A stretch of DNA of 46,920 nucleotides from a bacterium (GTDB lineage: Bacteria > Babelota > Babeliae > Babelales > RVW-14): contig JBDRBF010000020.1 of the NCBI GenBank assembly GCA_043822925.1, forward strand, positions 1-46,920. Direction: 5' to 3'. The position numbers and the translations under genes are program-made. The notes below the pieces were generated by a model that worked only from the letters and a program-made list of their open reading frames with translations, was not told the origin of the DNA and made no database searches. Shown here in pieces: positions 17,664 through 43,660 of this stretch (within the stretch, counting starts at the first letter, position 1; each line of letters begins with the position of its first letter).

Positions 17664-18620
17664 TTACGCTTGAATAGGCGTTATTTTTTGGGCGCTTACT
17701 TGTGCTGTATCTTGTATTATTTCTTGTTCTATTTCTCGTGTATTTGCTTCATTATCGTCTGCATCGTCTATAATTTCATTTATATAAACAAGTGCTTGCT
17801 CGATTACTTCTGGGTGATTTTTAGAAAGTGCGGTTAAGAATTTTTCAAATTTGTCTGTATGACTAACTATTTTGTCTTTCCAGAATGTCCACAATGGGTG
17901 ACCAACAGGAAGTTTTTGGATTAATTCGTTTAAAATAGAATAGGTTAGTTTTTTGATTTCTTCTTTAGAATGATCTTTTGTGTTTACGAGTTTTTCTACG
18001 GCCGTGTCTTGCAATATTTCGACAATAATATCTGAGAATAATGCAACGTTTTGAAGTTCGTCAAAATAGCGTACTTCACAGATAACGTTTTTATCTTCTG
18101 GTGTAACGGTGAAAGAGCCATCTATGCACAAGTATGTTTTTTTAGGCGAATTTTTGAGAAGATCTGCAAGCTTTTCGTTCAGTTCAAGCTGTGTGGCATC
18201 GAGAATTAACGTTTCGTCTATTTTATAAAATAATGGAGATAAGCCTGTTGCATCTTTTAAGTAGGCATTAAAAAGATCGTCTTGGGTTTTACATTCTTTG
18301 AGCTTTTTATAGGTTCTTTCGATTTCTTTAAGCGATACTCGTCCTAAATCTTTAATGCTTATATTGAGTATGTGGTCAAAATATTGTGTGAGCGTTGCGT
18401 CTTGTTCTAGGGCGTCAAATGCTATGATAATTATGTCATCCTGACCGTGTCCGGCGTAGCCTTGTGCGAAGCCTGGAACTTGATTCAGGATCTGTTCATT
18501 TTGTTTTGATTCCTTCATGAAAAAATCAAATTCTTGCGTTTGCATTTGGGCTGAATTTGCCTGGTTGCATGTAGCGCCGGCACATAAAAGAGCTATTGAG
18601 AGTATATGTTTTCTTATCAT
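17664..18620 (-). CDS. Secreted hypothetical protein; paralog of 19520..20029
   Basis: Signal peptide; shared IKDLG...DATGL...YLCIDG...EV domain. Confidence 0.85.
   Translation of the reverse strand: MIRKHILSIALLCAGATCNQANSAQMQTQEFDFFMKESKQNEQILNQVPGFAQGYAGHGQDDIIIIAFDALEQDATLTQYFDHILNISIKDLGRVSLKEIERTYKKLKECKTQDDLFNAYLKDATGLSPLFYKIDETLILDATQLELNEKLADLLKNSPKKTYLCIDGSFTVTPEDKNVICEVRYFDELQNVALFSDIIVEILQDTAVEKLVNTKDHSKEEIKKLTYSILNELIQKLPVGHPLWTFWKDKIVSHTDKFEKFLTALSKNHPEVIEQALVYINEIIDDADDNEANTREIEQEIIQDTAQVSAQKITPIQA
18435..18493 (+). repeat. Nested palindromes: family B inside family C, within a CDS
   Basis: GTCATCCTG[ACCGTGTCCGGCGTAGCCTTGTGCGAAGCCTGG]AACTTGATTCAGGATCT. Confidence 0.85.
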
Positions 18621-18696
18621 AAAGACCCTTTCTTTGTAAAAATAATAATTAATTAGCAGGGTATGCGTTTTTGGGTAAAAATCAAGACATTTGCAT

Positions 18697-18733
18697 AAAA
18701 AACAAGCCCCCGCGTAATTTTACGCAGGGGCTT
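18697..18733 (-). terminator. Intrinsic terminator
   Basis: AAGCCCC..GCGTAA / TTACGC..GGGGCTT stem plus T tract. Confidence 0.7.
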
Positions 18734-18761
18734 ATGAGTGTTTTGCTTTTGTTATTAAGCG

Positions 18762-19457
18762 TTAGTTTTTTCTTGGAGCGCCTTGGCAGACCCTATTCGA
18801 TTTTATAAATTTATCACCATTAATGTGGGGTGTTGTTTGTTCTATTTTTGCGCGATTGGCGATTGGAGTGCCTGGGCAGGTAAGTGTTCGATTGGCTTTA
18901 GGTGTTTCGGGTTCTATGTCGTTGTTTGCCTTGTCTTGAGCTTCAAATTCAAGCATATTAAGGAAATTTTTTGAAACAGAATTTATACATTTTTTAATAA
19001 ATTTTAAGAGTTCTAAATCGTTATCTGTAAAAAGATTTTTTTCTAAGTAATATTCAATTCCGTTGTCTTTGGCGTATTTAACAAAAAAACGTGCGTATGT
19101 TTTTGAGCTTTCTGCAATAAGGCCTTTAAGTAGTTTTTTTTGTTTATCGTTTAGTTGTTGTAGCTTGTTTGCGAATATTTCGTTTAATAAATTTGCGGCT
19201 TCTTTTTGTACGATTTTTTCTAGTTTATTCAAGCGGTTTGAGTCGTCGTTATCCTGCCAATCTGCAATTTCTATTGCCAAGATTTCTGCAAAAAGACTGT
19301 GTTTAAGATTTTTAACTATAGCACATTTAAGTGTAGCGACTGTTATCTCTGTTTGGTTTATGTCTGTTTGGCTTGCTTTGTCCATAGGCTGGGCCATTTG
19401 TATTGAGCATGCAGTTAGGGCAAGTGCGAGAAGTATATTTTTTGTTCGTATCATCAT
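18762..19457 (-). CDS. Secreted hypothetical protein (start MMIRTK)
   Basis: Upstream DNA and signal peptide are shared with 19520..20029, which places the start at 19457. Confidence 0.8.
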   Translation of the reverse strand: MMIRTKNILLALALTACSIQMAQPMDKASQTDINQTEITVATLKCAIVKNLKHSLFAEILAIEIADWQDNDDSNRLNKLEKIVQKEAANLLNEIFANKLQQLNDKQKKLLKGLIAESSKTYARFFVKYAKDNGIEYYLEKNLFTDNDLELLKFIKKCINSVSKNFLNMLEFEAQDKANNDIEPETPKANRTLTCPGTPIANRAKIEQTTPHINGDKFIKSNRVCQGAPRKN

Positions 19458-19486
19458 ACGATATTCTTTCCAGTAAAAATGTTTGT
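19395..19486 (-). repeat. Duplicated RBS plus signal peptide segment (other copy 19967..20058)
   Basis: Colinear at offset 572, e.g. TTTTTGTTCGTATCATCAT and TTCTTTCCAGTAAAAA. Confidence 0.85.
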
Positions 19487-19519
19487 GTTTTAGGACTGAT
19501 AAAAATGCCCCGCGCATAC

Positions 19520-20029
19520 TCATAGTGCTACGGCGGCTTCTTGTGTTATTTCTTCCGTTTGGGTTGCAGCATCAACTTGGGTTGCAGCGTTGGTGTTTTT
19601 GAGATGATTTGAACACTTTTTCATAAAATTAGAAAGCATCGAGAGGAAGATGTGTACCTCAAAAACAATATTAGGGGTTTCTTTTTTTAAGGTGTATCTT
19701 CCATTTGCGCAAAGGTATATTTTTTCTGCGGGATTTTTTTCCATGAAAGTGCTTATATTCTTAGGGAGATTAATATGTTGGGCTTTGAGGACTACATCTT
19801 CGTTTACTTTGCTGAAAAGCCATGTTAAGCCTGTTGTATCTTGCAAGCGCAGCTCTAAGAGGTCTTCTTTTGTCTCGCATGCTTTAACGTCGTTATATAT
19901 TTTTACAAGTTTTGAGATTTCGACTTTTCCAATGTCTTTGATATCGACTTCTGGGCTTACGGCTTGCATTTGCATAGTACATGTTGTTAGGGCTAGAGCG
20001 AGAATTATTTTTTTTGTTCGTATCATCAT
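19520..20029 (-). CDS. Secreted hypothetical protein
   Basis: MMIRTKKIILALALTTC signal peptide; domain shared with 17664..18620. Confidence 0.85.
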   Translation of the reverse strand: MMIRTKKIILALALTTCTMQMQAVSPEVDIKDIGKVEISKLVKIYNDVKACETKEDLLELRLQDTTGLTWLFSKVNEDVVLKAQHINLPKNISTFMEKNPAEKIYLCANGRYTLKKETPNIVFEVHIFLSMLSNFMKKCSNHLKNTNAATQVDAATQTEEITQEAAVAL

Positions 20030-20207
20030 GAGATTTTCTTTCCAGTAAAAAAGTTTGTATTTTTCTGCCCAATAAGCACTCCGTGTGTTTATTGTTTATG
20101 CAAAATAATATTGAGAGGGCTAGTTTAATTTCTTTTTTGAGTAATGCAAGAGAAAGTATGGGATAATTTAAGCTCTGGTAGATTTTGTGATTTTGGTGAT
20201 TTGGAAA

Positions 20208-20873
20208 CTAGCGTAAAAAACCATCGATTATAATTTGTTCGGCATTGTGCGGTATAATGCCTCGGCTTTGTAGATAAAATAAGTGATTGGTATCAAGTGT
20301 GCTGATGGCTGCGCCGTGTTTGCACTGGGCATCATGCGCTAGAACTTCAAGCGTTGGTTTGCCGATTATATGAGCATGTTTGCTGAGCAGTATGTTTTTG
20401 CTTGATTGTGTAGCCTCAGATTTATAGGCTTCTTTTTCTATGCGAATAAGATTGTCGCAGGTAAATTGCGCTGTGTCATTTAAGACACTTTTTACTTTTA
20501 CGGTACTTTTTGTATGTGGCGCTTGATGGTGCTGGGTTGTTTTAAATATAAAATTATTTGTTTTTGTACCGTAATAGAGCCCTGTGATTGTTGCGTTGGC
20601 GCTTGTGCCAGCTAAGTGTACGATTATAGAGAGAGATTTGCATGTTTTTGGGCCTGTTTTTTTGCTAGAGTGCTTAATGTTTTTGAGTACATAATTTAAT
20701 GTACTGTTTTCTTTCAGAATAAACTCACGCGAGTAGTTATGATTTTCTGGGATTTCAAGATTTGTGGTGTCTAATTTTAGGGTGCATGTGTTATTGCACA
20801 AGTCGTCAAGAATATCTAAGTGTGTGTTTTTTGGGACTGTAATAATTGTATGCGTATTTTTGGCGTTATTCAT
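20208..20873 (-). CDS. sufD: SufD-like Fe-S assembly protein (short)
   Basis: HQAPHTKS, KPTLEV...AQCKHGA, LFYLQSRGI; ATG overlaps the sufB stop. Confidence 0.88.
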   Translation of the reverse strand: MNNAKNTHTIITVPKNTHLDILDDLCNNTCTLKLDTTNLEIPENHNYSREFILKENSTLNYVLKNIKHSSKKTGPKTCKSLSIIVHLAGTSANATITGLYYGTKTNNFIFKTTQHHQAPHTKSTVKVKSVLNDTAQFTCDNLIRIEKEAYKSEATQSSKNILLSKHAHIIGKPTLEVLAHDAQCKHGAAISTLDTNHLFYLQSRGIIPHNAEQIIIDGFLR

Positions 20874-22308
20874 GGGGTGTTTCCATTTCAAGTTCAATAA
20901 GCCGGTTCATTTCTATCGCAAATTCCATTGGCAATGTTTTGACCAGCGGGCTAATAAACCCGTTAATAATAAGCGTTCGTGCGTCGGAGCTGGACAGTCC
21001 CCTGCTCATTAAATAAAATAATTTATCGTTGTTTATCTTGCTTACTGTTGCTTCGTGTCCAATATCACAGGGCGCTGTTTGTATATCTATAATTGGGTAC
21101 GCGTCGGCACGTGATTGCCCATCAAGAATAAGCGCATCACACTGAACAAACGATTTACAAGATAGAGCATTTTTTGTGACTTTTACTAAGCCGCGATAGC
21201 TTGTTCTGCCACCGTTATTACTAATAGATTTAGAGATTATTCGTGAACTGGTATGCGGGGCTGTGTGTATTACTTTGCCGCCAGAATCGTTTATTTGAGA
21301 ATTACTTGTTGCCATAGCAAGCGACAAGATCTCGGCGCGTGCTCCGGGTTCTTGTAATATTATGCACGGATATTTCATGGTTACTTTGCTGCCAAGATTA
21401 CAATCTATCCATTCGACGCATGCGTTTTGGTAAGCTATAGCACGTTTGGTAACTAAGTTATAAATGTTTTTTGACCAGTTTTGTATCGTATAATACCGTA
21501 TCTGTGCGCCGGGTAATGCGATAATTTCGACGACTGCTGAGTGCAGCGAGCTACTGGCATATGTCGGGGCCGTACAGCCCTCGATATAGCTTACTGATGC
21601 GTCTTTGTCGACAATAATTAATGTGCGTTCAAACTGGCCCATGCGTGGGGAGTTAATTCTAAAATATGTTTGTAATGGCACAGAAACATGTACGCCTGCT
21701 GGTACGTAAATAAAGCTCCCGCCACTCCAGACGGCTGTGTTAAGTGCTGCAAATTTATTGTCTGTGTATGGGACCAGTGTGCCAAAATATTGGCGCAATA
21801 AATCTTCGTGTTTTCTTAAGCCAGAATCTGTGTCGAGAAATATAATGCCGAGTTCTTCCCATTCTTTTTTAAGATTATGGTACACGACTTCAGATTCGTA
21901 CTGTGCCCCTAGGCCAGCCAAGTGTTCGCGTTCTGCTTCTGGAACGCCTAGGCGTTCAAATGTATGTTTAATATCTTGTGGGACATCATCCCAGGTTCTT
22001 TTTTGTTGTTTTATTGGTTTTAAATAAAAGTATATATCGTCGATGTTTAGTTCAGATAAATCAGGGCCCCATGTTTGCACTGGGTGCTTTATGAATTCTC
22101 CCAGCGCTTTTAGGCGCAGCTCAAGCATCCAGGCCGGTTCATTTTTTTCAGCCGAGATCTTTCTGACAATTTCTTCGGTCAGGCCTAGATCTGATTTATA
22201 TACAAATTGTTCTGGAACAGAAAAGTTCCCGTTTTGGGCTTTATCTGTTTTCGTATTATCTGTGTTGGTGTTATCTGGATTTGTACTGTTGTTTGTGTTC
22301 TTTTTCAC
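20866..22308 (-). CDS. sufB: Fe-S cluster assembly protein SufB
   Basis: AQYESEVVY, WSGGSF, GQFERTLII, YIEGCTAP, KVTMKYP. Confidence 0.97.
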   Translation of the reverse strand: MKKNTNNSTNPDNTNTDNTKTDKAQNGNFSVPEQFVYKSDLGLTEEIVRKISAEKNEPAWMLELRLKALGEFIKHPVQTWGPDLSELNIDDIYFYLKPIKQQKRTWDDVPQDIKHTFERLGVPEAEREHLAGLGAQYESEVVYHNLKKEWEELGIIFLDTDSGLRKHEDLLRQYFGTLVPYTDNKFAALNTAVWSGGSFIYVPAGVHVSVPLQTYFRINSPRMGQFERTLIIVDKDASVSYIEGCTAPTYASSSLHSAVVEIIALPGAQIRYYTIQNWSKNIYNLVTKRAIAYQNACVEWIDCNLGSKVTMKYPCIILQEPGARAEILSLAMATSNSQINDSGGKVIHTAPHTSSRIISKSISNNGGRTSYRGLVKVTKNALSCKSFVQCDALILDGQSRADAYPIIDIQTAPCDIGHEATVSKINNDKLFYLMSRGLSSSDARTLIINGFISPLVKTLPMEFAIEMNRLIELEMETPHE

Positions 22309-22360
22309 GCGTGCCTAATGCTTATTTTGTCATCTCAAGTGCTCCCCCCTAGATACAACG

Positions 22361-22385
22361 CGCTCACCCTGAGCTTGTCGAAGGG
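22361..22385 (+). repeat. Palindrome family A, intergenic
   Basis: CGCTCACCCTGAGCTTGTCGAAGGG. Confidence 0.85.
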
Positions 22386-22464
22386 CCAAAGCCTTGAAAG
22401 TTCTTTTTTAAGAGCAAAAGCGTAGCACATTTCGCGAAGAATATTAAATAGACGTTATTTAACT

Positions 22465-23139
22465 TCAAATTTGTCGATTCTGGAGGTTTTTTGGGCTTTC
22501 AGGGGTCATATTCATGTCCGTTTCTTGGTTTTCGTATATTTTGTTTTGGATCGTTAGATTGTTAAAGTAAATTTGTGTTCTTTGTTTTTTTTCATATTTT
22601 TTTTCTTGTTCAATCAAATCGTTGCGTTCTTTTAGGTCAGGCGTGAAGACTTCATAAAGTGTGTCTTTTATGAATAATACTGTTTTGTTCATGATGTTTT
22701 TGGCGTTTGAGTTGTTTCTTGTAAGCACATCTATAAACGTGTTAATTTTATCGAGAAAGAGTTCGAGGTTTTCTTTGTAAAAATCTTGATTAAAGACTTG
22801 GAAGAAAAAGAATACGTTTTTTTTGAGCATGATTAATGATTGGTTGTTATCTGTAAAAAATTTCTGTTTATATCTTTCTAAGATTGTATAAATACGTGAT
22901 TTAATGTGTTGTTTAAAAAAGTTTAAAGGGGGGATCTCTTTACGGATTTCTTTGGGAAGTGCCCAGCGAAAGTATTGATAAAATTCTGCAAATTCTTCAG
23001 GGGTAAACTTTGTATCGATGATATTTGTTAATTCTTTGTCGTGAGATAAATCTTGTTTTAATGTGTATATATTTGAATTTATAAGCGCAATTAAAATTAT
23101 TGTGGTGGCAAAGAATTTTAGATTACATATCGTTTTCAT
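22465..23139 (-). CDS. Secreted hypothetical protein
   Basis: Signal peptide; AAGGGGG SD. Confidence 0.75.
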   Translation of the reverse strand: MKTICNLKFFATTIILIALINSNIYTLKQDLSHDKELTNIIDTKFTPEEFAEFYQYFRWALPKEIRKEIPPLNFFKQHIKSRIYTILERYKQKFFTDNNQSLIMLKKNVFFFFQVFNQDFYKENLELFLDKINTFIDVLTRNNSNAKNIMNKTVLFIKDTLYEVFTPDLKERNDLIEQEKKYEKKQRTQIYFNNLTIQNKIYENQETDMNMTPESPKNLQNRQI

Positions 23140-23287
23140 GGGGCCCCCTTGTAAATCGCCAGAATAGTTTTCTTAGACCTAAATTTACGTTTAGTATTTA
23201 TAATAATTTTATACGTAACGTGAATATACACCGAGAATAGGTGGCGATAGCAAGAGTTTGAGAAAAATAGGACGCAGCCCCAGGTTT

Positions 23288-25180
23288 TTATTTTTTATAA
23301 AACATTGGTAGTTCGCTGCCATGCCAAGAATCAATATTGATACATCCCAGATCTTTGAGTAATTCGATATCGCACTTATTATTGGTTTCTTTTTTATTAT
23401 GTTTTTCTGATTTTTTGATTTGGAGATCGATAATATTCTTATCTAAAGAACAGACCCAGCCGTGGCCATTAAAGCTAATAAAATTTTTGCGCTCTAGTTT
23501 ATTTAACTCGTTTAGAATTTCTTTCCAGACGCTCATAAAACTGTCGCCATTTTGGTTTGGTTCTATCGCGAGTGTCTTGAAGTTTTCAAATGTCCAGCCG
23601 GTATGTATGTTTTCTTCTAGGTCTGCAGTTTTGTAGAACGCGTGTTTATTGAGTGCGCCATAGAGTAAGTAATTTACTTTGCTCATGACACAGTAGGCGA
23701 GCATTTGGGTGTCGCCAGGTAAATATGTTTCGAGTAATTTTGGCGTATATTTGTTTTGTTTTTCTTTGCTTCTATATATTGTTTTGGATATAGAGCTGGT
23801 TTTTACGTTATCACAAAATTGAGTGTAACTTTCCCAGGGGCTTATGCTCCAAGAGATCTTGTCATCCCAGACTTGCCTGCCCTTTGGAGCCACTTGGGCG
23901 TAGTAGGGATCTGGGTTCAAGAGCTTGCCCGGCGTAGCCTCGTGCGAAGCCTGGGCCTTTTTCCTATATTTAAAATCGACGATATTTTGTGTTCTTTTAT
24001 AAAGCTCTGGGTTTTTGCCAAAAATTTCGGCCAGATGGTATTGCAAAAGCATCTCTTTTGTAAAATAGGTATTGTCCCAAAGATTTTCTGTTTTATTAAA
24101 TAGGTCTTGTAGTTGTTTTGTGACTATATAAAGAGGGTGCTTTGTGTCTTGTGAAATATCATGATTGTTATTGTCTAGGCCCAGGCGTAAAAGCATCAAT
24201 TTGTATAAGCCGGTTAAGTAAAAACAGTATTTTTGATTATTAAGCATTAATGTTATTTCGGGGGTGCTAAAATCAAAGGCATTTTCCGGCATGCCGAGTA
24301 AGTTTGCCGGTTGCATGATTGTTTCACTTTGATGTTCAGCAAGAGCTCCTGGGATTGTTTGTTCGTCTCTGAATGTATAGTTGAGGGCGTTAACTTTATG
24401 GGCATAAAATGTTTTTTTATTATTGAGCGAGCGAGCGTCTGTTTGGGATAAATGTGTTATTGGAGTTGTGATTTGGTTTGTTAGTGTGTTTTTGTCGCCC
24501 GTGAACATTTTATAGTAGTTATCTTGCTTTGCGTTATAGCCATAATAAAAACCATTTTCGTCTTGGTAAAAGGGCATCTTTGTTGCATTGTTGGCAATAA
24601 ATTCGTCGCCGCGTATTGAATCAGTAGTTTCTTGAGAGCTCAGTTGGCTGGTCGCCCTATCAAAATAGATTTTTTCAAGTGCTTCCCGGTGAGCTATAAA
24701 GTAGGGGCATGAATAAAAAGAAAAGATATTATTAAAGTTAGATATAAATGTGTTCTCTTGTGTATACATATGGGGCAGTACTGGCCCTTTGTCTATACCT
24801 GTTTTAATAAAAACTTGTAAGGCCGGATATTTTGAGCTGAGTATTTGTTTGAATGTTGCGTGCCAGGTTATAACGTACTGGTATTCTCGTCCAAACCAAA
24901 TTCTTTTAGTTGCCCACTGTGCGTCGGGAATATCTGTTAGTTTGTTTGTTTGTTTAAGTAAGTTTTCGAGTTTATGCAGGTTATACATGGGTGAAATAAA
25001 ACAGGTACTGTTTACTTGTTGGTGGAATAGATATTTGGTTGCTTTTGGGGTTTGAGGGGCTAGATCTTCATCTGGTAATTTTTTAGAATAACTTTGAGAT
25101 AATTGAATCAAAGATTTTGAAAGTTTCAGGAGTGCATGCTTGAGCTTGTTTAGTTGTGCTCCAAGCTTTTGCCCGATCAT
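23288..25180 (-). CDS. Hypothetical protein with N-terminal heptad helix and in-frame palindrome insertions
   Basis: 630 aa ORF; no recognisable domain. Confidence 0.8.
   Translation of the reverse strand: MIGQKLGAQLNKLKHALLKLSKSLIQLSQSYSKKLPDEDLAPQTPKATKYLFHQQVNSTCFISPMYNLHKLENLLKQTNKLTDIPDAQWATKRIWFGREYQYVITWHATFKQILSSKYPALQVFIKTGIDKGPVLPHMYTQENTFISNFNNIFSFYSCPYFIAHREALEKIYFDRATSQLSSQETTDSIRGDEFIANNATKMPFYQDENGFYYGYNAKQDNYYKMFTGDKNTLTNQITTPITHLSQTDARSLNNKKTFYAHKVNALNYTFRDEQTIPGALAEHQSETIMQPANLLGMPENAFDFSTPEITLMLNNQKYCFYLTGLYKLMLLRLGLDNNNHDISQDTKHPLYIVTKQLQDLFNKTENLWDNTYFTKEMLLQYHLAEIFGKNPELYKRTQNIVDFKYRKKAQASHEATPGKLLNPDPYYAQVAPKGRQVWDDKISWSISPWESYTQFCDNVKTSSISKTIYRSKEKQNKYTPKLLETYLPGDTQMLAYCVMSKVNYLLYGALNKHAFYKTADLEENIHTGWTFENFKTLAIEPNQNGDSFMSVWKEILNELNKLERKNFISFNGHGWVCSLDKNIIDLQIKKSEKHNKKETNNKCDIELLKDLGCINIDSWHGSELPMFYKK
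23861..23955 (+). repeat. Family B inside C (23861..23918) plus a second B copy (23923..23955), within a CDS
   Basis: GTCATCCCAGACTTG[33 bp]ATCTGGGTTC, then CCGGCGTAGCCTCGTGCGAAGCCTGG (25/26 to 18451..18476). Confidence 0.85.
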
Positions 25181-25278
25181 AAAATCACTTCCCCCAGAAA
25201 ATGAGATTAATAACGAAAAACTAATATATGTTTTATATTCTAGTTAGTTTAGGAATCAAAAAGCGAGAGTTTTATAGA

Positions 25279-27132
25279 TTAGGCTTTTCTGGTATGGAAA
25301 ATGATAATTGAAATGGCGGCTGGCGTCATGCCGGGGATCAGTTGGGCTTGTGCTATGGTTTTTGGTTTGTAATGGTTAAGCTTTTCTTGCATTTCTCCCG
25401 TTAGTCCAGGAAAATTGAGGTAATCAAATTTATCTGAGATTTCCAGCTCTTGGTATTTTATGGCTTTTTCGACTTCTAGGTGTTCTTTCTTTATGTATCC
25501 AGCGTATTTTATTTCGGCATGTATGCACAAGAGGGCTCGGCTTGAGAGTGCTTCTATATTAATAGATTTGGCGAGCAATAATTCTCGGGCTTTTTTCTGC
25601 GTGTCTGCGTCAAATGTAATCGAATTCAATGTTTCATAGAGCTCGCCCTTATTTCGTTCTTGTTTTACGATATTTACGCACGTTTCGATTATATTTTTTT
25701 CTTCTAAGAATTTAGTGTATAAATTGTCGTCTATTAGTCCCAAGTTTTTGCCATAGGGCATGAGGCGTAAAAAAACGTTATCTTGGCGCAATAATAAGCG
25801 GCGTTCAGCTCGTGAAGTAAACATGCGATATGGTTCATCGACTCCAAGCGTGATCAAATCGTCAATCATGACGCCGATATAACTTTCATTTCTATTTAGT
25901 ATGAATTGCTGAGCGCCTGTTGCTTTTAGGTGGGCGTTTATTCCAGCCAGCAACCCTTGGCCTGCAGCTTCTTCGTATCCCGTAGTTCCATTTATTTGTC
26001 CTGCCAGATATAACCCCTGAACAGTTTTGGTTTCCAAACTGTGCGTTAAATTACTTGGCTGAATAAAATCGTATTCTATAGCGTAGGCACATTTTGTAAT
26101 TTGGGCGTTTTCGAAGCCTTTAATAGATTTTATATATGCTTCTTGCACGTGTAATGGGAGCGATGTTGAAAGTCCTGCTGGATATATTTCTTCATAGCCT
26201 TGTCCTGGGTGCTGGCCTTCTGGTTCTACAAAAACGTGATGCATAGGTCTATCGGGAAACCGGCGAACTTTATCTTCTATTGATGGGCAATATCTTGGGC
26301 CAACTCCCGTAATATGTCCTGAGTATAGAGCAGCCAGGTGCATCGTATCTTTTATGATTTGGCATGTGTTTTCGTTGGTTTGAGTTATATGACAGGGCAT
26401 TTTTTCTTGCACATCTATTTGTTGAAATTCGTATAAATAATCAAGCTTTTGGTTTTCTTGTATGTTTAATTTTGAGTAATCGATGCTTGCGCGAGCTATT
26501 CTTGGAGGTGTTCCTGTTTTTAGGCGTCCCAGTTTTACGCCCATTGCTTGAGCGATAGAGTCAGAGAGGCCGTATGATGCTTGTTCGCCGCGCCTGCCTC
26601 CAAAATACCTGGTTCGGCCGACGTGTATGACCCCACGCATAAATGTTCCGGTTGTGACGACGACTGATGGCGCATAATAATTTGTGCCGTCGGCGCACTG
26701 TACCCCAATAATTTTATTTTCTTCTGTAAGTATTTGCGTGACCATTGCACTGAGTATCGTTAAATTTTTAGTGCTGTATAAAATTTCTGTTGCGATTCTA
26801 TTATATACGTATTTATCTATTTGTAGTCTTAATCCCTGTACTGCAGGCCCTTTACTTGTATTGAGCATGCGAGCTTGTAAGTAACTTTGTGTACATAGTT
26901 TTGGCATGAGGCCGCCCAGCGCACTTATTTCATAGACAATATGCCCTTTGCCCAGGCCACCAATAGAAGGGTTGCAGGGCATGGTTGCCATTTTTGTTGT
27001 GTCTGGCGTAAGCAAAAGTGTGTGTGAGCCCATTGTTGCTGCTGCATGTGCAGCTTCTACGCCTGCATGTCCTGCGCCCACTACTATGACATCAAAGTTA
27101 TTATTTTTATTATTGTTATTTATGTTCTTCAT
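25279..27132 (-). CDS. mnmG: tRNA U34 modification enzyme MnmG/GidA
   Basis: [51 protein letters not shown]. Confidence 0.98.
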
Positions 27133-27281
27133 GTTATGAAGTTTATACTATTTTTAACTGCTTATCACGGCCCTAAATAATCTTTTTTGTTGTATTTTTG
27201 AACTACGCGTGTTTAAAATTCTATTAGTGTTTTTATGGCGCTGGATTTATTGAAAATTTTGTAAAAAGGGAGTTTGAGACA

Positions 27282-28778
27282 ATGAAGCGCATAATTTTGG
27301 CAAGTATGTTTTTTGTGGCATTGTTGAGTATTGGGTCAGTTCTTTTTGGGCATTCGAAAAAGAACTTTTTAATGCCACGGGCTGTTGGCGTTAATGCGGT
27401 GATGGAGCACGTAACCTGGCAGAGCCAAATTTATGTGCCAAATTATAAACACAAAATTAATAGTTATATTCACGTAACGCCGTTTTATCAAACTTCAGAT
27501 AATAAGCATGTAATTGGTGGCTATTTTGGTCTGAACGGTGTAAATGGTAGCAATGTAATTACTTTTGGTAATACAGCTAAATATGATGAGCATTCAGCCG
27601 ATCTTGATGGTGCTTATTTTATTCATAATAACGATTTGTATGACGAAAGTCCCATTAATGGCACCATGTTTACTCTTAACCCTGAACAAGAAGTTTGGGG
27701 TGCTCGTTTAGATTTCTTCCAAACTATTAATATACCTATTAAAGACTTATTTTTCAGGATAAGTATGCCTGTTGTTCATATAGAAAATAATGTAAAAATG
27801 GGCGTTACGTTTCCTGTTTATAATCCAACAGGTGTTGTGTCGTATGCTGGGACTAATGTGGCATATAATATTATAGATTTTTTTGCAGGGCGTGTAACGG
27901 TAGATCAAGCAACGTCTGGGGCTAATATGCAATTGTCACTTACTAAGGCTAAAGTTGATGGTCGTCAGTCCAAAAATGGCGTAGCAGATATCGATTTGTC
28001 TCTTGGTTATAAGCTGCTTTTTAAAAAAACAAAATATGCATTTTTTGATATCGGCATTACTATTCCAACGGGAAATACGCCTCGTGGCGACTATTTGTTT
28101 GAATCGGTTTGTGGTAATGGCGGTCACGTTGGTCTTGGAACTAGTCTTAACGTTGGGCTTGAACTTTGGAAATGCGAAAAATATTGGATTCGTGTAGATA
28201 GTGCTGTTAAATATAAATATTTGTTTGAGTCTACTGAGAAACGTACACTTGGGATTAAAGATATGTCAGGAAAATCTCTTCCATATGGCCAATATTATTT
28301 GGGAGGGGTTATTAATCAACCGGCCAATACAGCGTATTTCCCGTTGGCAAACGAAGTTACGCGCGATGTAAATATAAAACCAGGTAGTCAAATCGACTCC
28401 CTTATTAATTTTTCTTTTAATACAAAGCACTTTGTTATTGATTTTGGATGCAATATGTATTGGAAAGATGATGAATCTTTGTCTGTAAAAAATTGGAAAG
28501 ATGGTGTTTATGCGATAGCAACCACAAATGATTTGACGGATGCTGATTTTGTAAATGTCCCTGGTGGTGAAAGTTACATTGAATTTACTCTTGATCCTGC
28601 GACTGCAAAAACACCAACTCAATTGACGCATAAAATTTTTGCAGGGTTTGCATACAAAACTGATATTTCAAAATGTTATCCAACATTTGTAGGCTTTGGC
28701 GGTTCTTATGAATTTGTGAGTAAAAATTCAGCACTTGAACAATATGCATTGTGGGTAAAAGCAGGACTATCTTTTTGA
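27282..28778 (+). CDS. Predicted outer-membrane beta-barrel protein, paralog 1
   Basis: Signal peptide; about 12 amphipathic strands; GVAD..PTG..GNGGHVG; ends WVKAGLSF. Confidence 0.7.
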   Translation: MKRIILASMFFVALLSIGSVLFGHSKKNFLMPRAVGVNAVMEHVTWQSQIYVPNYKHKINSYIHVTPFYQTSDNKHVIGGYFGLNGVNGSNVITFGNTAKYDEHSADLDGAYFIHNNDLYDESPINGTMFTLNPEQEVWGARLDFFQTINIPIKDLFFRISMPVVHIENNVKMGVTFPVYNPTGVVSYAGTNVAYNIIDFFAGRVTVDQATSGANMQLSLTKAKVDGRQSKNGVADIDLSLGYKLLFKKTKYAFFDIGITIPTGNTPRGDYLFESVCGNGGHVGLGTSLNVGLELWKCEKYWIRVDSAVKYKYLFESTEKRTLGIKDMSGKSLPYGQYYLGGVINQPANTAYFPLANEVTRDVNIKPGSQIDSLINFSFNTKHFVIDFGCNMYWKDDESLSVKNWKDGVYAIATTNDLTDADFVNVPGGESYIEFTLDPATAKTPTQLTHKIFAGFAYKTDISKCYPTFVGFGGSYEFVSKNSALEQYALWVKAGLSF

Positions 28779-28794
28779 GTAAGGGGACGTGTTT

Positions 28795-30966: not shown

Positions 30967-31179
30967 AATTGATATTGAGAAGAAGAGTTGGTAATTGTTT
31001 AACATGGTATGTGGTGAGGCTGCGGCCGGGGGTACTGTAAAAGTGAATTGCTGCTTTTTTGCAAAAAGTGTGTTATGAAATAATGAGTGTTGCAGGACGT
31101 TGTGCTATAACACTCATTATAAAAATGTTTATTCACACGAATCTTGTTCAAATGAAACTTGAATGAAGAAGGAATGGTA

Positions 31180-32664: not shown

Positions 32665-32676
32665 AAGAAGCTTTAG

Positions 32677-33306
32677 ATGAAAAAGTTTTTTTTAATTTTT
32701 ATTTTTTGCTTAGGTTGTTTGTTTGATGTGTGTCTTGGGCAAGAGATAATAGTTTGTCATGAGCAAATGGTTAATTTTCTTAAAAATTATTGCGATTTAG
32801 ATGTAGACGCGCGTTGGAAAGAAGAGATTGTTCCTGAGATCAAAAAAATGTGTAGGCGAGGGGTGGCGGTTAATCAGTGTCCTAAAGAATTGTTTAAGCG
32901 GCTTGAAGATCTGCGTGCAGATTTGTATAATTTTGTATTAGCTTATAAAAATAAAAAAGTGTTAGCATCTGAGTTAGGTGCAACGTTAATAGAGAAGATA
33001 AATTTGTGTGATCCCGCGTTTTTTAATCGCATAAAAAGCAAGCAGGAAGCGTTTAAAAGAGCTTTGAAGAAAAACGAAGATTCAGAGCATTATTACGAAG
33101 ATAATACACATAGTTTATTGGCAGTTAATTTGCTGGGGGTTTTGGTTTACACGTTGGTGCCGTTTTTTTCTTCAAGACGGTTATTTGAGCGGTTTAAGAA
33201 AGCAAAGAAGAAATCTCCGTATGGGCATGTTGAAAAAATGCCCCAGTTAAATGTTTGTTTTGAAGTTTCAGCTGGTAAGATAAAAATTTCTTCTATTACT
33301 GATTAA
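32677..33306 (+). CDS. Secreted or membrane-anchored hypothetical protein
   Basis: Signal peptide; helical body; hydrophobic segment near the C-terminus. Confidence 0.75.
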   Translation: MKKFFLIFIFCLGCLFDVCLGQEIIVCHEQMVNFLKNYCDLDVDARWKEEIVPEIKKMCRRGVAVNQCPKELFKRLEDLRADLYNFVLAYKNKKVLASELGATLIEKINLCDPAFFNRIKSKQEAFKRALKKNEDSEHYYEDNTHSLLAVNLLGVLVYTLVPFFSSRRLFERFKKAKKKSPYGHVEKMPQLNVCFEVSAGKIKISSITD

Positions 33307-34525
33307 AGTTATTGGCTAGATCAAATATGGGCAGGTAGATACTGAGCATGAGGCCGGCAATAATTAAGCCAGTTATGATAAGCAAGATAGGCTGCAACGT
33401 TGTTGTGAGAAAGTGTAATTTGCTTTTGAGTTGGACCATGAAAATCTGAGCTGCTTTATCAAGCATTATATCAAGTTTGCCACTGTGTTCACCGGTGGCA
33501 ACCAGCGCTATTAAATTTTCCGGATAATATTTTGCGCCAACTTGCTTGAGCGCTTGTTCAAGTGTTTGCCCGTGCGTTACGGCATTGAGCAAAATACTAT
33601 TTTTTTGCTGAAAGCTCTGGTTGGCGATTGTTAAATTTGCGTTTTCTATTGCGCTACTGAGGGGGATTCCAGCATGTAAAAATAACGATGTTGTTTGTAA
33701 AAATGTGATTCTGTCAGAAAGCAATAAGATATTATTGATATATGGCAGTGCAAGTAGCAGCCTGTCTATTATCTGAGTTATTGGTTTTAAGCGTGTTAAT
33801 AGTGAGAGAGCAAAGATAATAAATGGGGTTGTAAGTATTAAGAAAATGCTTGTTTTTGTTTGTAACGCGTTGCTTATTGCAAATACTATTTGAGTTGAGT
33901 ATGGGAGCGGGCGTTCGAATGTATTAAAAATAGTGGAAAATTGTGGGACGATAAAAATAAAAAGTCCTAAGATAATAAAAATCGCAAACAAAAGAGTTAT
34001 GCCTGGTAGCAGTGCGGCACGCATGAGGTCTTTTTTGAGCGTGAGTCTATCTTCAAGATGTTTTTCGATTTTTTGTAAGCATATTCCTAAATTACCTGTT
34101 TTTTCGCCAGCATCAATAATATGAATCATAAATGGGTTAAATATGTGCGGGAAGCATTTTAGTGTTGTAGAAAAGCTGTCCCCATTTTTTATATCTGTAG
34201 CTAGTTGAGTAACGGTGTTTTTGAATGCGTTATGGCTGGTTTGTTTAGCGAAAAGATTTAGAGCATGGGCTATATCAACACCATTGCTGACTAAAATAGC
34301 CAGATGTTGGAAAAAAGTGATTAAAAGATGATCGGTAATTTTTTTTTCAGCCAAAAACGTAAATAGAGAGAATATAGGTGATTTTTTTTGTGCCGGGTTG
34401 CAGGTAAGTAGTGCGATATTTTGAGCTAAAAGATTTTGTTTGAGTTGATCTATTGTCGTGGCGTGACTTATTCCTGTTTTTTTTGTTCCATATGTATCGA
34501 TCCCGGTCCAATAATAAGTAGGCAT
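33296..34525 (-). CDS. pilC: Type IV pilus / T2SS platform protein (PilC/GspF)
   Basis: Y.W.G.D..G N-terminus; AGEKTGNL and TGEHSGKL repeats; IYLPIF. Confidence 0.92.
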   Translation of the reverse strand: MPTYYWTGIDTYGTKKTGISHATTIDQLKQNLLAQNIALLTCNPAQKKSPIFSLFTFLAEKKITDHLLITFFQHLAILVSNGVDIAHALNLFAKQTSHNAFKNTVTQLATDIKNGDSFSTTLKCFPHIFNPFMIHIIDAGEKTGNLGICLQKIEKHLEDRLTLKKDLMRAALLPGITLLFAIFIILGLFIFIVPQFSTIFNTFERPLPYSTQIVFAISNALQTKTSIFLILTTPFIIFALSLLTRLKPITQIIDRLLLALPYINNILLLSDRITFLQTTSLFLHAGIPLSSAIENANLTIANQSFQQKNSILLNAVTHGQTLEQALKQVGAKYYPENLIALVATGEHSGKLDIMLDKAAQIFMVQLKSKLHFLTTTLQPILLIITGLIIAGLMLSIYLPIFDLANNFNQ

Positions 34526-34549
34526 AAAAGCCCCCTAATTTATGTTTTT

Positions 34550-34840
34550 TTAGATTTTCATTTGAATTTCTACGCCCAGTTGAGCAAGTATGGTGTCTAA
34601 TTTGTTAGCAGACTCGATACGTACGCGTTTATTCCGTGATGTGAGCCCTGAGATTATGTATACGCTTTCTTGGGGCAAATTAAGCTTTTTGCTTAAAAAT
34701 TTAACAAGTTCTTGGTTGGCTTTGCCTTTTTCTGGTGGGCTTTTTACGTAACATTTGATTCTGCCGGCTTTATCGGCGGTGCAAAGTTGCTTGCCAGAGG
34801 CGGGAAATACCTTAATATCTATCGTTATTATTGTTTTCAT
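34550..34840 (-). CDS. DUF167 (YggU/UPF0235) protein
   Basis: PPEKGKANQEL, ISGLTSRNK. Confidence 0.9.
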   Translation of the reverse strand: MKTIITIDIKVFPASGKQLCTADKAGRIKCYVKSPPEKGKANQELVKFLSKKLNLPQESVYIISGLTSRNKRVRIESANKLDTILAQLGVEIQMKI

Positions 34841-34979
34841 TGTATTTAAAAATAAAAAAATTCAGAAAATCGAGACAATTTATTTAATCTCATTTATACT
34901 CCATTTTAACTTAAAACACTAACTAACTTAAAATACTAACTTAAAAAAACGGTTTGTATTAAAATAAGTTATAAAATTG

Positions 34980-35053
34980 GCGCCCATAGCTCAATTGGAT
35001 AGAGTATCAGACTACGAATCTGACGGTTAGAGGTTCGAGTCCTCTTGGGCGCA
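34980..35053 (+). tRNA. tRNA-Arg(ACG), CCA not encoded
   Basis: GCGCCCA/TGGGCGC acceptor stem; TCAGA-CTACGAA-TCTGA; GTTCGAG. Confidence 0.96.
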
Positions 35054-35073
35054 TGATCTTAAAAATATAGGTT

Positions 35074-35165
35074 GGAGAGATGGCTGAGTGGTCGAAAGCG
35101 CTTGCCTGCTAAGTGAGTATCTGGGGAAACCCGGATCGAGGGTTCGAATCCCTCTCTCTCCACCA
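35074..35165 (+). tRNA. tRNA-Ser(GCT)
   Basis: GGAGAGA/TCTCTCC; CTGCTAA loop; long variable arm; CCA. Confidence 0.96.
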
Positions 35166-35194
35166 TACTAAGCTAAAGCTGCGTATGGCAGGCC
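35163..35194 (-). repeat. Palindrome family B overlapping the tRNA-Ser CCA
   Basis: Reverse complement GGCCTGCCATACGCAGCTTTAGCTTAGTATGG fits the B pattern. Confidence 0.65.
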
Positions 35195-35232
35195 AGTCTA
35201 AAAAAAATCTCTGCTTAGAATAAGTCTTTACT

Positions 35233-35324
35233 GGAGAGGTGGCAGAGTGGTTGAATGCAACGGTCTTGAAAACCGTCACACCGGGAAACCGGTGTCGGGA
35301 GTTCGAATCTCCCCCTCTCCACCA
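35233..35324 (+). tRNA. tRNA-Ser(TGA)
   Basis: GGAGAGG/CCTCTCC; ACGGT-CTTGAAA-ACCGT; long variable arm; CCA. Confidence 0.96.
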
Positions 35325-35337
35325 TTAAGTCGTTATC

Positions 35338-35363
35338 GTTATCCTGAATAGATTTTGGGATCC
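35338..35363 (+). repeat. Degenerate palindrome family C
   Basis: GTTATCCTGAATAGATTTTGGGATCC vs GTCATCCTGAACTTGATTCAGGATCT. Confidence 0.5.
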
Positions 35364-35428
35364 AAGTCAAACAAGAATCAACAAAATTATGTCGTGAACG
35401 GTGTTAAAGTTAATTAAATGGGGCTTAT

Positions 35429-36691
35429 ATGGATAATAAAGTAAAAAAGTTTGCAAAATCAGTTCTATCGGATATTCAAGCGAAAATTCAAGACGTTTCT
35501 CATGAATTAAAAAAAACGTATGAAGTTGTTACATTAAATAAGTATTTAGCATCTTGTGGTCTTTGTTCTCGCCGAAAAGCTGAGGATGAGATAAAGCAGG
35601 GGTTCGTTACGGTGAATCACGCTGTAATTACTAATCCTGGTTATCGGGTTCAAGAGAAAGATGTTGTTCGGTATAAAAAACATGAAGTAAAGCCAGAAGA
35701 TTTTGTGTATATTTTGCTGAATAAACCAGATGGATATGTTACAACGGTTTCTGATCCTCATAATAAAAAGACTGTTATGCAGTTAATTGAGAGTTCGGTT
35801 GTAGGGGACAGGCGATTGTTTCCTGTTGGTCGGCTAGACCTTCATACAACGGGGCTTTTGCTTATTACGAATGATGGGGAATTGTCTCAACAGTTAGCGC
35901 ATCCTAAAAATGGGGCGCAAAAAATGTATCAAGTATTGCTTGATCAGCCTTTGCTCGAAAAAGATTTGCAAAAAATTCGTGATGGAATCAATTTAGATGA
36001 CGGTTTTGTTAGTTCTGACCGAGCATATTACATTTCTGGTGGTTCAAAGCGGCGTGTTGGCATTCAGATTCATACGGGAAAAAATCGTATTATTCGTAGA
36101 ATTTTTAAATTTCTTGGTTATAACGTTGTTTCTCTTGATCGTGTGGCGTATGCTGGTTTATCAAAACATGGTTTATTGCGTGGCCAATGGCGATTTTTAA
36201 TGCCAAATGAAGTTGTAGCGTTGCGTCACGCTGGTAAGGCTACGACTATGGATATTATTAAAAGTGTAAAAGAGAGTAAATCGGTAGCCAGAACAAGGCC
36301 GAGTAGGCCTTCTGCTACGGTAAGATCTCGTTGGGCTGCAGATAAAGCGAGATCTAGTCGTCCTACAAATAAAGAAAAGATTAATTGGGCAGTAGGCAAA
36401 GTTCCGTCTAGTCAGCCTATAGATAAAGAAAAGTCGCGTCGCTCAACAGGTAAAGCAAGACCTGGTCGGCCTACAAATAAAGATAATTCTAGTTGGTCGA
36501 CAGATAATGGAAAATCGAGCCGGCCTGTTGGTAAAAAAAGATCTGGTCAGCCTATAGATAAAGACAATTCTAGTTGGTCTATAGATAAAGCAAAGCCGAG
36601 TCGCCCAGCCGGTAAAGCAAAGCCGAGTCGGTCTACAACTAAAGAAAAACCTAGTTGGACAGCAGCTAAAGCTCGATTCAAAAAATCATAA
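35429..36691 (+). CDS. rluB: rRNA pseudouridine synthase (RluB/RsuA family) with repetitive basic tail
   Basis: S4 domain SRRKAE; LNKPDGYVTT; VGRLD..TTGLLL.TNDG. Confidence 0.88.
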   Translation: MDNKVKKFAKSVLSDIQAKIQDVSHELKKTYEVVTLNKYLASCGLCSRRKAEDEIKQGFVTVNHAVITNPGYRVQEKDVVRYKKHEVKPEDFVYILLNKPDGYVTTVSDPHNKKTVMQLIESSVVGDRRLFPVGRLDLHTTGLLLITNDGELSQQLAHPKNGAQKMYQVLLDQPLLEKDLQKIRDGINLDDGFVSSDRAYYISGGSKRRVGIQIHTGKNRIIRRIFKFLGYNVVSLDRVAYAGLSKHGLLRGQWRFLMPNEVVALRHAGKATTMDIIKSVKESKSVARTRPSRPSATVRSRWAADKARSSRPTNKEKINWAVGKVPSSQPIDKEKSRRSTGKARPGRPTNKDNSSWSTDNGKSSRPVGKKRSGQPIDKDNSSWSIDKAKPSRPAGKAKPSRSTTKEKPSWTAAKARFKKS

Positions 36692-36712
36692 AATATTTAT
36701 ATTTTGCTTAGA

Positions 36713-36981: not shown

Positions 36982-37010
36982 TTGACATAGAACCAGGGTG
37001 TTGGTACCAT
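36982..37010 (+). promoter_or_regulatory. Near-consensus sigma70 promoter
   Basis: TTGACA-17-TACCAT with extended TGn and an A/T tract upstream. Confidence 0.8.
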
Positions 37011-37015
37011 TTGGC

Positions 37016-37167: not shown

Positions 37168-37192
37168 AGATATATAAAATTGTTATTAGCTG

Positions 37193-40522: not shown

Positions 40523-40562
40523 TGGTATTTCCTTTATGGAGGCTCTTTTTTTACGTGTTATG

Positions 40563-40808: not shown

Positions 40809-40897
40809 AAGGTTCCTTTTTGTATATAGTTTTGTATATATCTATTTACTTTGTGCTCACCCTGGGGTTTTCTATGTGCCATCTATATGTTTATGTT

Positions 40898-40927
40898 AGT
40901 ATGTAAACATATGCGTTTATTTGTCAA
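40898..40927 (-). promoter_or_regulatory. sigma70-type promoter for atpE
   Basis: TTGACA-18-CATACT on the minus strand. Confidence 0.55.
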
Positions 40928-40971
40928 ATACTATTATATAAATATTTGTATTGGCTAAGCTTTCAACATAT

Positions 40972-41733: not shown

Positions 41734-42055
41734 AAAAAAATCTCGTCATAAAAAATTTTGTCTTAAGTGTTCTCTTAAAATTAAAAAAAGCACCTATTTA
41801 TGTGCAAATATAAAGTGCAAATAGTGGAAGTTCGTAGAATTGAGTTAATTTTATCGTGGAGCGCGGCGAAAATCTATTCAAATTTAATTTTTTTCGTATT
41901 TGACTCATTGTCAATGGGCTAAATTGACATTGTGGAGATTTTTGTTTTACTTAGAGCCTGCTCATGCAGATCTTGGTATTGGGAGAGTTATTTCTTATTT
42001 GAACGTTGTATTTATTATTATGTAATTTAAAAAAAAGAATAAAAAGAATACGTGT

Positions 42056-43573
42056 ATGGCGAGAAAAACAAAATTATTATTGTGGGCTTTTTCTTTTGGT
42101 ATTTTATTTTTTCCATTCATATGCGTGTGCGATGATAGCGATGATGCGCCAGAATTTACTGGAGATGTGAGTATTGAAGATCTTAATATTATTGAGCAAA
42201 AACCAGATTTTTCACAGTATGTTTTGAGAGGTGATCTTGATTATGAGAAGCTTTTGGATCTTCTTTGTGCTATAGAAAGTCCGTTATGGAAGAGTACACA
42301 GATTCCTAAGGGGCGCGATCCGTTATATCTTTTACCATATAAAATTACGGCACTTGAATATGGTGGGATTTCGACCAGTCTATTTTTTAATATGACAAAT
42401 AAAATGCAAGTTAGCTCTGATAGTCTTTTGGATGTAAAAATAATAAGTAAGCAAAAAGTAACTGATTTTTTAAATGAGTTATTAAAGTCTGATGATGGGT
42501 TGGAGATTACGGCTCAGGAGCTTTCAAGTATTGTTCCCTTGCTTCAAAAGATTACGCTTCAAGAGATAAAAGCTGGCTTTTTTTTGCAGGGTGGTTTTGT
42601 TAAGGGCCCATTTAATATTCAGGTTAATACGTTGTGCCAAGTCGCTGAAAGAAATTTTTGGCTTAATAAGCGAGAACGAGCTGAAGCCTCTTCTATAATA
42701 CAGAAGAAATTTCCTGGAGGATCTCTTGATGATAAAGAGCTTTATCGATTGACGTATGGTTTTGGTGATACGCGTGTGAAGTGTGGCTTGAATACTTTGA
42801 ATATGACTGATTTTGTGGTTGATTTTGGATTTGAGGGTATTGTTCCAACCAGTAGGATTTCGTCAAAACATCATATGACGACCGTAGTTGATATTAATCT
42901 AGATGAAGATAACGAAATTATTAAAGAAACGCTTGTTAATTTACTGCGGGGAACAAGAGATTTGCTCCTTGAGCCTAAGCTTGGCAATGGGGGGCATTTT
43001 GGGGTTGGGTGTTATATTGAATCTAAGATAGGGCTTTTTAATAACTTGGCAAATATGTGGCTTCGTTTTTCATATAATAAACTTTTTGCCAACGATGAAT
43101 ATCGTTTGATTATGTTTAATAATGCGACTGGAAGGTTGGATAAACAAGAGGTGATAGATTTGTTTATAACAGATCCAACGGCAGGAAAAGAGTTAATAAG
43201 CCTGTTCGCTCGAGAGTTTATCTTTCCGTCGTCATTTAAAACGAGTGTAAATCCGGGAGGTATTTTTAATGCTATAGTAAGCATCTCGTTTGATGTGAAA
43301 AAAATGAACATAGCGTTGGGATATGATTTTTATGCTCAGCAGCAGGAACGTATTGAAAAAGTCTATAGTTCAAGCGTGCAAATGTCAGAATTAAGAATAG
43401 AAGATGCACAAATTCCAGATATCTATCAGCATAAAATTTTTTCAGAAGCTTTGTATACCAAACAATATAAGCGGTCTAAAGTAGGGTTAGGTCTTGGTGG
43501 AGATGTTACGGCTCATAGTAAAAATCTTGGGTATGATTGGACTGTGTACTTAAAGGGAACGGCGTCGTTTTAG
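42056..43573 (+). CDS. Predicted outer-membrane beta-barrel protein, paralog 3
   Basis: Signal peptide; GFGD..VPT..GNGGHFG, LGYDFY, QHKIF; ends VYLKGTASF. Confidence 0.7.
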   Translation: MARKTKLLLWAFSFGILFFPFICVCDDSDDAPEFTGDVSIEDLNIIEQKPDFSQYVLRGDLDYEKLLDLLCAIESPLWKSTQIPKGRDPLYLLPYKITALEYGGISTSLFFNMTNKMQVSSDSLLDVKIISKQKVTDFLNELLKSDDGLEITAQELSSIVPLLQKITLQEIKAGFFLQGGFVKGPFNIQVNTLCQVAERNFWLNKRERAEASSIIQKKFPGGSLDDKELYRLTYGFGDTRVKCGLNTLNMTDFVVDFGFEGIVPTSRISSKHHMTTVVDINLDEDNEIIKETLVNLLRGTRDLLLEPKLGNGGHFGVGCYIESKIGLFNNLANMWLRFSYNKLFANDEYRLIMFNNATGRLDKQEVIDLFITDPTAGKELISLFAREFIFPSSFKTSVNPGGIFNAIVSISFDVKKMNIALGYDFYAQQQERIEKVYSSSVQMSELRIEDAQIPDIYQHKIFSEALYTKQYKRSKVGLGLGGDVTAHSKNLGYDWTVYLKGTASF

Positions 43574-43605
43574 GTAGTTAAATATATTTATAAAATCGGA
43601 TTTTG

Positions 43606-43660
43606 CCCTTCGACTGGCTTGTCCCTACGCCAAGGCTACGGTGCACAGGCAGGGTGAGCG
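43606..43660 (-). repeat. Nested palindromes: family B inside family A, intergenic
   Basis: Reverse complement CGCTCACCCTG[CCTGTGCACCGTAGCCTTGGCGTAGGGACA]AGCCAGTCGAAGGG. Confidence 0.85.

Follow-up and report, generated by a model that had tools for sequence, protein, structure and literature searches.

How does a hairpin of some 30 nt come to lie within other hairpins? The question is raised by contig JBDRBF010000020.1 of a Babelota bacterium (GenBank assembly GCA_043822925.1), all 46,920 nt of which are referred to here as the window. An initial annotation described five copies of a palindromic repeat, B, in this contig, three of them inside palindromic repeats of two further families, A and C. 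Within its genome of origin (G000; 1.52 Mb, 92% complete) the window corresponds to contig C20, and B was followed through that genome, its relatives and other phyla. B is a non-autonomous single-hairpin element, dispersed through the genome and found mostly inside other hairpin repeats. In relatives it is associated with a tRNA-linked gene for an 80-amino-acid (aa) protein of the GIY-YIG nuclease family. Together these make up a real and widespread variant, apparently undescribed so far, of the theme of a hairpin repeat paired with a tiny nuclease.

Structure of B and its nesting in other hairpins

B begins with a 5′ tag of 4-5 nt, followed by a stem of ~6 bp, which a GWA/GWA internal loop separates from a 2-bp GC stem and its variable loop. 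The tag is usually CCTG, and CCGTG, CCAG and CTTG also occur. A descriptor scan of the whole genome returned 89 matches, against 11 in one order-4 Markov control genome, where the highest score was 4.7. The counts given below rest on the 57 genomic copies scoring at least 4.8; the 32 weaker matches, genuine degenerate copies among them, were dropped, and two degenerate copies in the window (23876 and 43620, both scoring 3.8) lie outside the set of 57. A stricter pattern was present in 21 of 31 genomes, and a reversed control pattern gave no matches. The outer stem covaries, since positions 2-6 pair above the shuffled expectation in an unfiltered set of copies from relatives (89 of 213), which were fetched regardless of the 3′ arm, and position 2 is paired in 61 of these 89 copies against 31 expected. 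This unfiltered set is the fair test of covariation; an alternative alignment (A2) combines 13 hand-picked viral copies with the five from the window. The fold energies of single copies are weak (z −2.2 to +1.9).

Sorting by fixed rules placed 45 of the 57 copies inside another hairpin repeat, two in the tail of a C element, four at tRNA 3′ ends and six elsewhere. The hosts of the 45 nested copies were other B elements (14, a few of these assignments being loose), the C loop (10), the A stem (10), the C stem (6), the A loop (4) and a fourth palindrome, D (1). Nine reference hosts were used to judge excision, a host counting as restored at an identity of at least 75%. With B removed at the limits assigned here this was so in 29 of 57 cases, rising to 34 when up to 4 nt of slack was allowed, while none of 1500 random excisions, scored without slack, restored a host. 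The nesting noted in the initial annotation extends to the whole genome, and B is strongly enriched within other palindromic repeats. The idea that the arms of B are copied from its target was rejected, because removal of the whole of B restores hosts exactly.

The insertion sites are few, namely host position 12 or 18 in A, position 10, 11 or 16 in C, and the GAA loop within B. About 62 C and 42 A elements are intact, compared with 30 filled A or C hosts among the 57 B copies, so that roughly one A or C host in four is occupied. The orientation of B is fixed in this genome, where one regular-expression test found no insertion in reverse to the host. When 51 nested copies were grouped by host site and B subtype, 37 classes were obtained, and six B subtypes were each found in two or three host types, which argues that B has moved or been converted independently of its hosts. 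Some composites are near-identical and were evidently copied whole (C4:777 and C47:17174).

A also inserts into the loops of C and of other A elements, and B loops carry further inserts; three or four levels of nesting result, for example at C4:777, C47:17174 and C6:17566. At C41:34060-34100 a collapsed B with a single GCGAAGC mini-hairpin lies in the stem of an A variant, and a full B occupies the loop of the same A.

The five copies in the window lie where the initial annotation had placed them, their limits being refined here by stem pairing, and excision of B restores the host in the three nested cases. At 18445 the junction ambiguity is 2 nt, and stem pairing prefers TGA^A over the CCTG^AA first given. 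The copies, their hosts and the empty hosts used for comparison are as follows.

18434..18493, plus strand: host C (TGTC-tagged palindromic repeat) with B in its 5′ stem, in frame within open reading frame (ORF) 17664-18620 (minus strand)
18445..18477, plus strand: B copy with a CCGTG tag and the 2-nt junction ambiguity (18444-18476 in the initial annotation)
23860..23923, plus strand: host C with B after the fourth loop base; 3′ arm and tail degenerate
23876..23908, plus strand: degenerate B copy in the C loop
23924..23955, plus strand: a further B copy, located in the 3′ tail of the C element that holds the 23876 copy; the same context occurs at C2:35634
23840..23962, minus strand: 123-bp (41-codon) in-frame insertion in ORF 23288-25180, containing C and both B copies; limits approximate
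35074..35165, plus strand: tRNA-Ser(GCT), the CCA of which doubles as the end of the B 3′ arm
35163..35192, minus strand: B copy at the tRNA-Ser 3′ end, beginning at the tRNA CCA; a second CCA follows on the plus strand (35193-35195)
43606..43661, minus strand: host A (GCTC-tagged palindrome with a tandem G.A mismatch) with B in its 5′ stem
43620..43649, minus strand: B copy with a degenerate 3′ arm, in the A stem; the same site is occupied in 10 higher-scoring genomic copies
22360..22385, plus strand: uninterrupted A copy, an empty host
14985..15011, plus strand: uninterrupted A variant, an empty host

The composites at 18434 and 23860 are crossed without gaps by contigs from two other studies and so are not artefacts of assembly. 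The 41-codon block in ORF 23288-25180 is absent from all three of its non-identical homologs, which are 27-36% identical; this comparison is the sole empty-site evidence, and it concerns the whole C+B+B block and not B alone. ORF 17664-18620 (minus strand) encodes 318 aa with a signal-peptide-like start, and its C+B composite is translated in frame near the N terminus; no homologs of this ORF were found. The tRNA-Ser beside the 35163 copy had gone unmentioned in the initial annotation. This copy takes the position usual for B beside the tRNA-linked GIY-YIG genes of relatives, but the gene itself is missing there. A search of the window with Rfam returned three tRNAs and nothing else.

Junctions at the points of insertion

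The initial annotation had proposed that B enters at a fixed CYTG^A motif. This does not hold across the genome, where CYTG precedes 20 of the 57 copies and CYTG^A fits 14, or in the relatives, where the corresponding counts are 25 and 11 of 89. The pentamer CYTGA occurs 7684 times in the genome, and 21 distinct 4-mers stand to the left of the 57 copies, in place of the fixed target of IS200/IS605 elements. The CYTG seen before B belongs to hosts A and C, where it is part of the loop or stem. The base before the cut was G in 40 copies and A in 15, and the base after it was A in 36 and T in 17; a G^A or G^T (G^W) parse is available for 48 of the 57 junctions. The cut positions lie mostly in hairpin loops or mismatches.

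As to target duplication, none of fixed form exists, but microhomology of 0-6 nt is present above chance. The left flank and the 3′ end of B overlap by 0-6 nt, more than under permutation, also when the tRNA-end copies are set aside. After copies were collapsed to classes, at least 1 nt of microhomology was found in 47 of 82 cases against 34 expected (p=0.0006). A candidate rule, by which the first base of the stem is complementary to the base preceding the tag, was rejected (p=0.0015 for all copies, p=0.06 after collapsing to classes).

A tRNA-linked GIY-YIG gene beside B

Inspection of B neighbourhoods in relatives revealed a second class of GIY-YIG gene (P0003, 80 aa), distinct from the genes flanked by C elements described below. 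The protein matches PF01541, is 32% identical to the C-flanked GIY-YIG protein and has SLX1 as its best PDB match (E=0.0017). No variation was seen in the catalytic residues (Tyr, Tyr, Arg, His and Glu) across all 30 P0003-type loci compared, and nuclease activity is predicted on that basis. With its single domain and its own hairpin alongside, the gene has the arrangement by which Ssn genes and their SRM hairpins are defined. Of 251 genomes in the phylum, 157 carry a gene of this class.

Among the best 30 P0003-type loci, 23 have B within 400 bp, compared with four of 24 Ssn-like (C-flanked) loci, one of the 29 top Y1 transposase loci and none of 35 background tiles. It is also near 55 of 80 P0003-type loci from metagenomes. 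For Y1 loci of the type found in this genome the count is eight of 30 (p=2e-4 against 23 of 30). A P0003-type gene was detected in 15 of 20 B-bearing genomes and in one of 10 B-free genomes, in a comparison that omits G018, which was not searched, and in which kin genomes are not independent. Genome G011 is rich in B and retains the gene, with 50 pattern hits for the one and 6 matches for the other.

A tRNA adjoins 22 of the 30 P0003-type loci. In the usual order the tRNA is followed by B on the opposite strand, its 3′ arm supplying the CCA, and then by the P0003-type gene. Among the 24 loci with an upstream T arm, five carry a duplicate tRNA 3′ stub after the gene, which begins at the 3′ end of a second B. 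At these stubs B lies after TTCG (L190, L191, L195) or just before the T loop (L193, L196), and the T-loop site TTCG^A is similar to the C-loop site CTYG^A. Free-standing GIY-YIG homing endonucleases, such as SegB of phage T4, occur in tRNA clusters; the likeness extends to the position beside tRNA genes and sometimes to partial tRNA duplication, whereas P0003 has no DNA-binding domain beyond its 80-aa core and is accompanied by a dispersed hairpin. In a separate case, seven tandem 69-bp units with one B each lie beside a tRNA-like end (L055, G015:C19:8670-9112).

Nesting extends beyond this genome. The form with B in the C loop was found, by an exact pattern, in five of the 251 genomes of the phylum, and the same form in hosts with a 9-bp stem (the stems in this genome being of 8 bp) was found at 63 loci across all GTDB genomes, among them Desulfobacterota relatives, Rickettsiales, other Alphaproteobacteria and Saccharibacteria. 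When restoration of the host arm was judged strictly, 40 of the 63 passed, and the insert measures 30-31 nt in 30 of these 40. The GTDB pattern covers 9-bp-stem hosts only and fixes the junction in advance, so the loci show occurrence and not preference. In other phyla, lineage-specific B arms lie within lineage-specific hosts. In genome G018, B lies in the C stem on the strand opposite the C tag (L023, L335, L336), which indicates targeting independent of the host tag. B-like copies are also frequent in viral contigs (L068-L147), where they are mostly free-standing and several appear to lie in frame in genes.

How B may spread

The interpretation that best fits these data is that B is the hairpin motif of the P0003-type nuclease and has spread by nicking of single-stranded hairpins followed by microhomology-assisted copying, a reading to which we give about an even chance. 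The P0003-type enzyme would recognise B and would nick single-stranded DNA where a hairpin has its loop or a mismatch, in most cases between a G and a following A or T. The freed 3′ end would then be repaired by copying a B-bearing template with the aid of 0-6 nt of microhomology, so that no fixed duplication forms. The commonest targets would be tRNA arms and repeat hairpins (A, C, B itself and the repeats flanking Y1 genes), and filled hosts would afterwards multiply as composites or through conversion. The intact gene would have been lost from this genome, in which case its B copies would be old or would have been moved by another enzyme.

Several observations weigh against this interpretation. 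GIY-YIG enzymes are hydrolases and are not known to carry out strand transfer, which leaves the joining step unexplained. Protein searches, a profile hidden Markov model, nhmmer and tblastn found no intact or clearly decayed P0003-type gene in the 92% of the genome that is present, and searches with the P0003 query found none in five of the 20 B-bearing genomes. It could be that B and the gene are neighbours through a common preference for tRNA ends. No empty orthologous site was seen among relatives, which align only at conserved genes (~70%), and no joint from which B had been removed was seen in low-depth contigs of four of 11 sequencing runs over 17600-36000, a range that excludes 43620. 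In the relatives, 44 of 75 junctions are compatible with G^A or G^T, and a hairpin folds across the excised junction in 24 of 89 cases against 113 of 1000 controls. Among 80 viral B loci, one is nested in C, three have a tRNA nearby and none has a P0003-type gene nearby. On contig C40 of the genome (11475-11770), a 5′ stub of tRNA-Gln and an intact tRNA-Gln enclose a very weak P0003 relic, possibly a decayed gene of this type, for which a small nhmmer search gave E 0.1-0.2.

Taken further, B and the 80-aa SLX1-like protein would form an undescribed transposition system, spread across several bacterial phyla and working by nick-primed copying into structure-defined targets. This broader claim is tentative, and we consider it somewhat improbable. 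If it is true, a 30-nt hairpin is moved into loops, mismatches and tRNA arms by a nuclease without strand-transfer chemistry; the same step would give rise to the gene cassettes at tRNAs as well as to the mosaics of nested repeats, and would be relevant to the spread of CGTC-type repeats, which lack a transposase.

Alternatively, a kind of micro-homing could be at work, in which a hairpin-cutting enzyme, perhaps the Ssn-like nuclease of host C, attacks empty hosts, filled hosts resist and repair converts the one into the other, B being a passenger that rarely inserts. Two intact 101-aa GIY-YIG genes, each between inverted C repeats with the tags outward (C2:35307-35630 and C57:5808-6113; L005 and L006), are present in this genome, where the partner gene of B is not. 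Host C itself has the make-up of a CGTC-tagged repetitive extragenic palindrome (REP), with a CGTC or TGTC tag, an 8-9 bp stem starting AT, a 4-5 nt loop and a CCA tail. The published SRM pattern matches none of 34 strict intact C copies and not the B copy tested, matches once in the whole genome and is present at four of the 24 Ssn-like loci; it is insensitive here, and SRM matches were therefore not used as evidence. Each C-bounded gene forms an Ssn-like cassette with a motif that escapes that pattern. Micro-homing would fit the few fixed sites, the way B subtype tracks site, the recurrence of near-identical multi-level composites and the quarter of A and C hosts that are filled. However, SsnA is described as cleaving upstream of its motif and not in a loop or stem (PMC11893778, in the sections covered), the sites filled by B extend beyond C to tRNA arms, A, D, B itself and Y1 repeats, and the first insertions would still require a mechanism. 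We consider micro-homing unlikely as the main explanation; it may operate on top of the nicking and copying proposed above.

The initial annotation favoured a Y1 HUH transposase, either IS200-like (subclass 1.2) or RAYT-like, that excises and reinserts B. HUH enzymes are described, in the parts of the literature covered, as carrying out strand transfer on tag-plus-hairpin substrates; the genome has four Y1 genes with the subclass 1.2 signature Y---Q--HH, one of which, when scanned, fell below the NF047646 cut-off. The lack of a fixed duplication at B is as such a route expects, and two of the 30 own-type Y1 loci carry B in both terminal repeats (L428, L429). All the same, the four genes are bounded by repeats other than B, no fixed target tetranucleotide exists, and the C^A predicted by the TnpA-REP guide rule (a cut complementary to tag bases 3 and 4) is seen in one of 57 junctions here and three of 75 in relatives. 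The association of B with Y1 loci is weak beside that with the GIY-YIG class. Two of the eight own-type loci near B appear spurious, and, where the case is clear, B is a passenger inside the repeats of the Y1 gene. A Y1 route is accordingly improbable. The tags of hosts A and C both end in TC, and the TnpA-REP rule applied to the host tag predicts G^A, which fits 34 of 57 junctions, 15 being G^T; this fit may be coincidental.

It could also be that no dedicated enzyme is involved, and that replication stalls at hairpins, B being copied into their loops when the template is switched from one hairpin to another that is nearby or similar. The variable microhomology, the insertions at structural weak points and the persistence of B in genomes and viruses without the gene are all in keeping with this. 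Both ends of B are nevertheless precise across phyla, as the 30-31 nt inserts in restored hosts illustrate, and the tag is kept; the fixed orientation in this genome and the strong link to one gene class likewise make template switching a poor prospect. That B was never mobile alone, its copies going back to amplification of whole ancient composites (C+B, A+B), one or a few in number, is very improbable and as a sole cause largely refuted: near-identical composites do exist and the entire C+B+B block did enter ORF 23288-25180, judged against its homologs, but the 37 classes, the six shared subtypes, the lineage-specific arms in lineage-specific hosts and the solitary B copies at tRNA ends and in viruses all speak against it.

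Ssn genes with their NTS/SRM hairpins are the nearest known parallel in one respect, since they pair a tiny single-domain GIY-YIG gene with a dispersed, 5′-tagged imperfect hairpin (PMC11893778, sections covered), and it is host C that bounds the two Ssn-like genes here. B differs in its tag, its GWA/GWA internal loop and its lack of an SRM match, and its partner differs in sequence (~32% identity to the C-flanked protein), in its location at tRNA genes and in having SLX1 as the nearest PDB entry. A mobile origin of Ssn cassettes is only hypothesised (Chenal et al. 2025, PMC11893778), and the sections of that paper covered here describe neither nesting nor insertion sites. CGTC-tagged REPs, which include dRS3, RPE-4 and RPE-6, share the anatomy of host C, have no dedicated transposase and are reported in frame in genes (Di Nocera et al. 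2013, PMC3733652, text). That paper also mentions in passing, for three species, REP dimers that have entered other palindromes; in those cases the CGTC or GTAG repeat is the insert, whereas here a third family enters a CGTC repeat. The text of that paper, its figures not being covered, contains no CCTG-tagged family.

GTAG REPs with RAYT/TnpA-REP, and IS200/IS605 elements, resemble B in that their imperfect hairpin carries a tetranucleotide at its 5′ foot and in that they show no fixed target duplication (PMC3479197 and PMC6006769, parts covered). Unlike them, B has no GTAG-type tag and no fixed target word, does not follow the guide rule and does not bound Y1 genes; its two joints lie directly at the tag and at the hairpin foot, and it is a single hairpin, not one of two distinct subterminal hairpins bounding a Y1 tnpA gene. 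The palindromic elements in coding sequences of Rickettsia and Wolbachia (PMC3733652, text) parallel the palindromic DNA in frame in ORF 23288-25180, although their sequence is another and the insert here is a nested composite. In the literature covered, no publication on B, on its nesting or on the tRNA-linked class of gene was found; B-like motifs are possible in the figures and supplements of PMC3733652 and PMC11893778, which that coverage does not include.

Nested copies have exactly defined junctions, since dozens of intact copies show what the empty host looks like, and these junctions can be read as traces, left in vivo, of how cutting and joining took place. The nested copies also supply defined substrates for what is probably a second family of tiny single-strand or structure-specific nucleases. 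Such inserts can add residues to a protein, 41 of them in ORF 23288-25180, and they bear on the spread of short palindromic repeats without a transposase, the CGTC repeats being an example.

Elsewhere in the window, a 117-bp direct repeat (97%) at 1-117 and 2059-2175 flanks ORF 249-2105, which itself contains a 15-bp tandem array at about 1175-1558.

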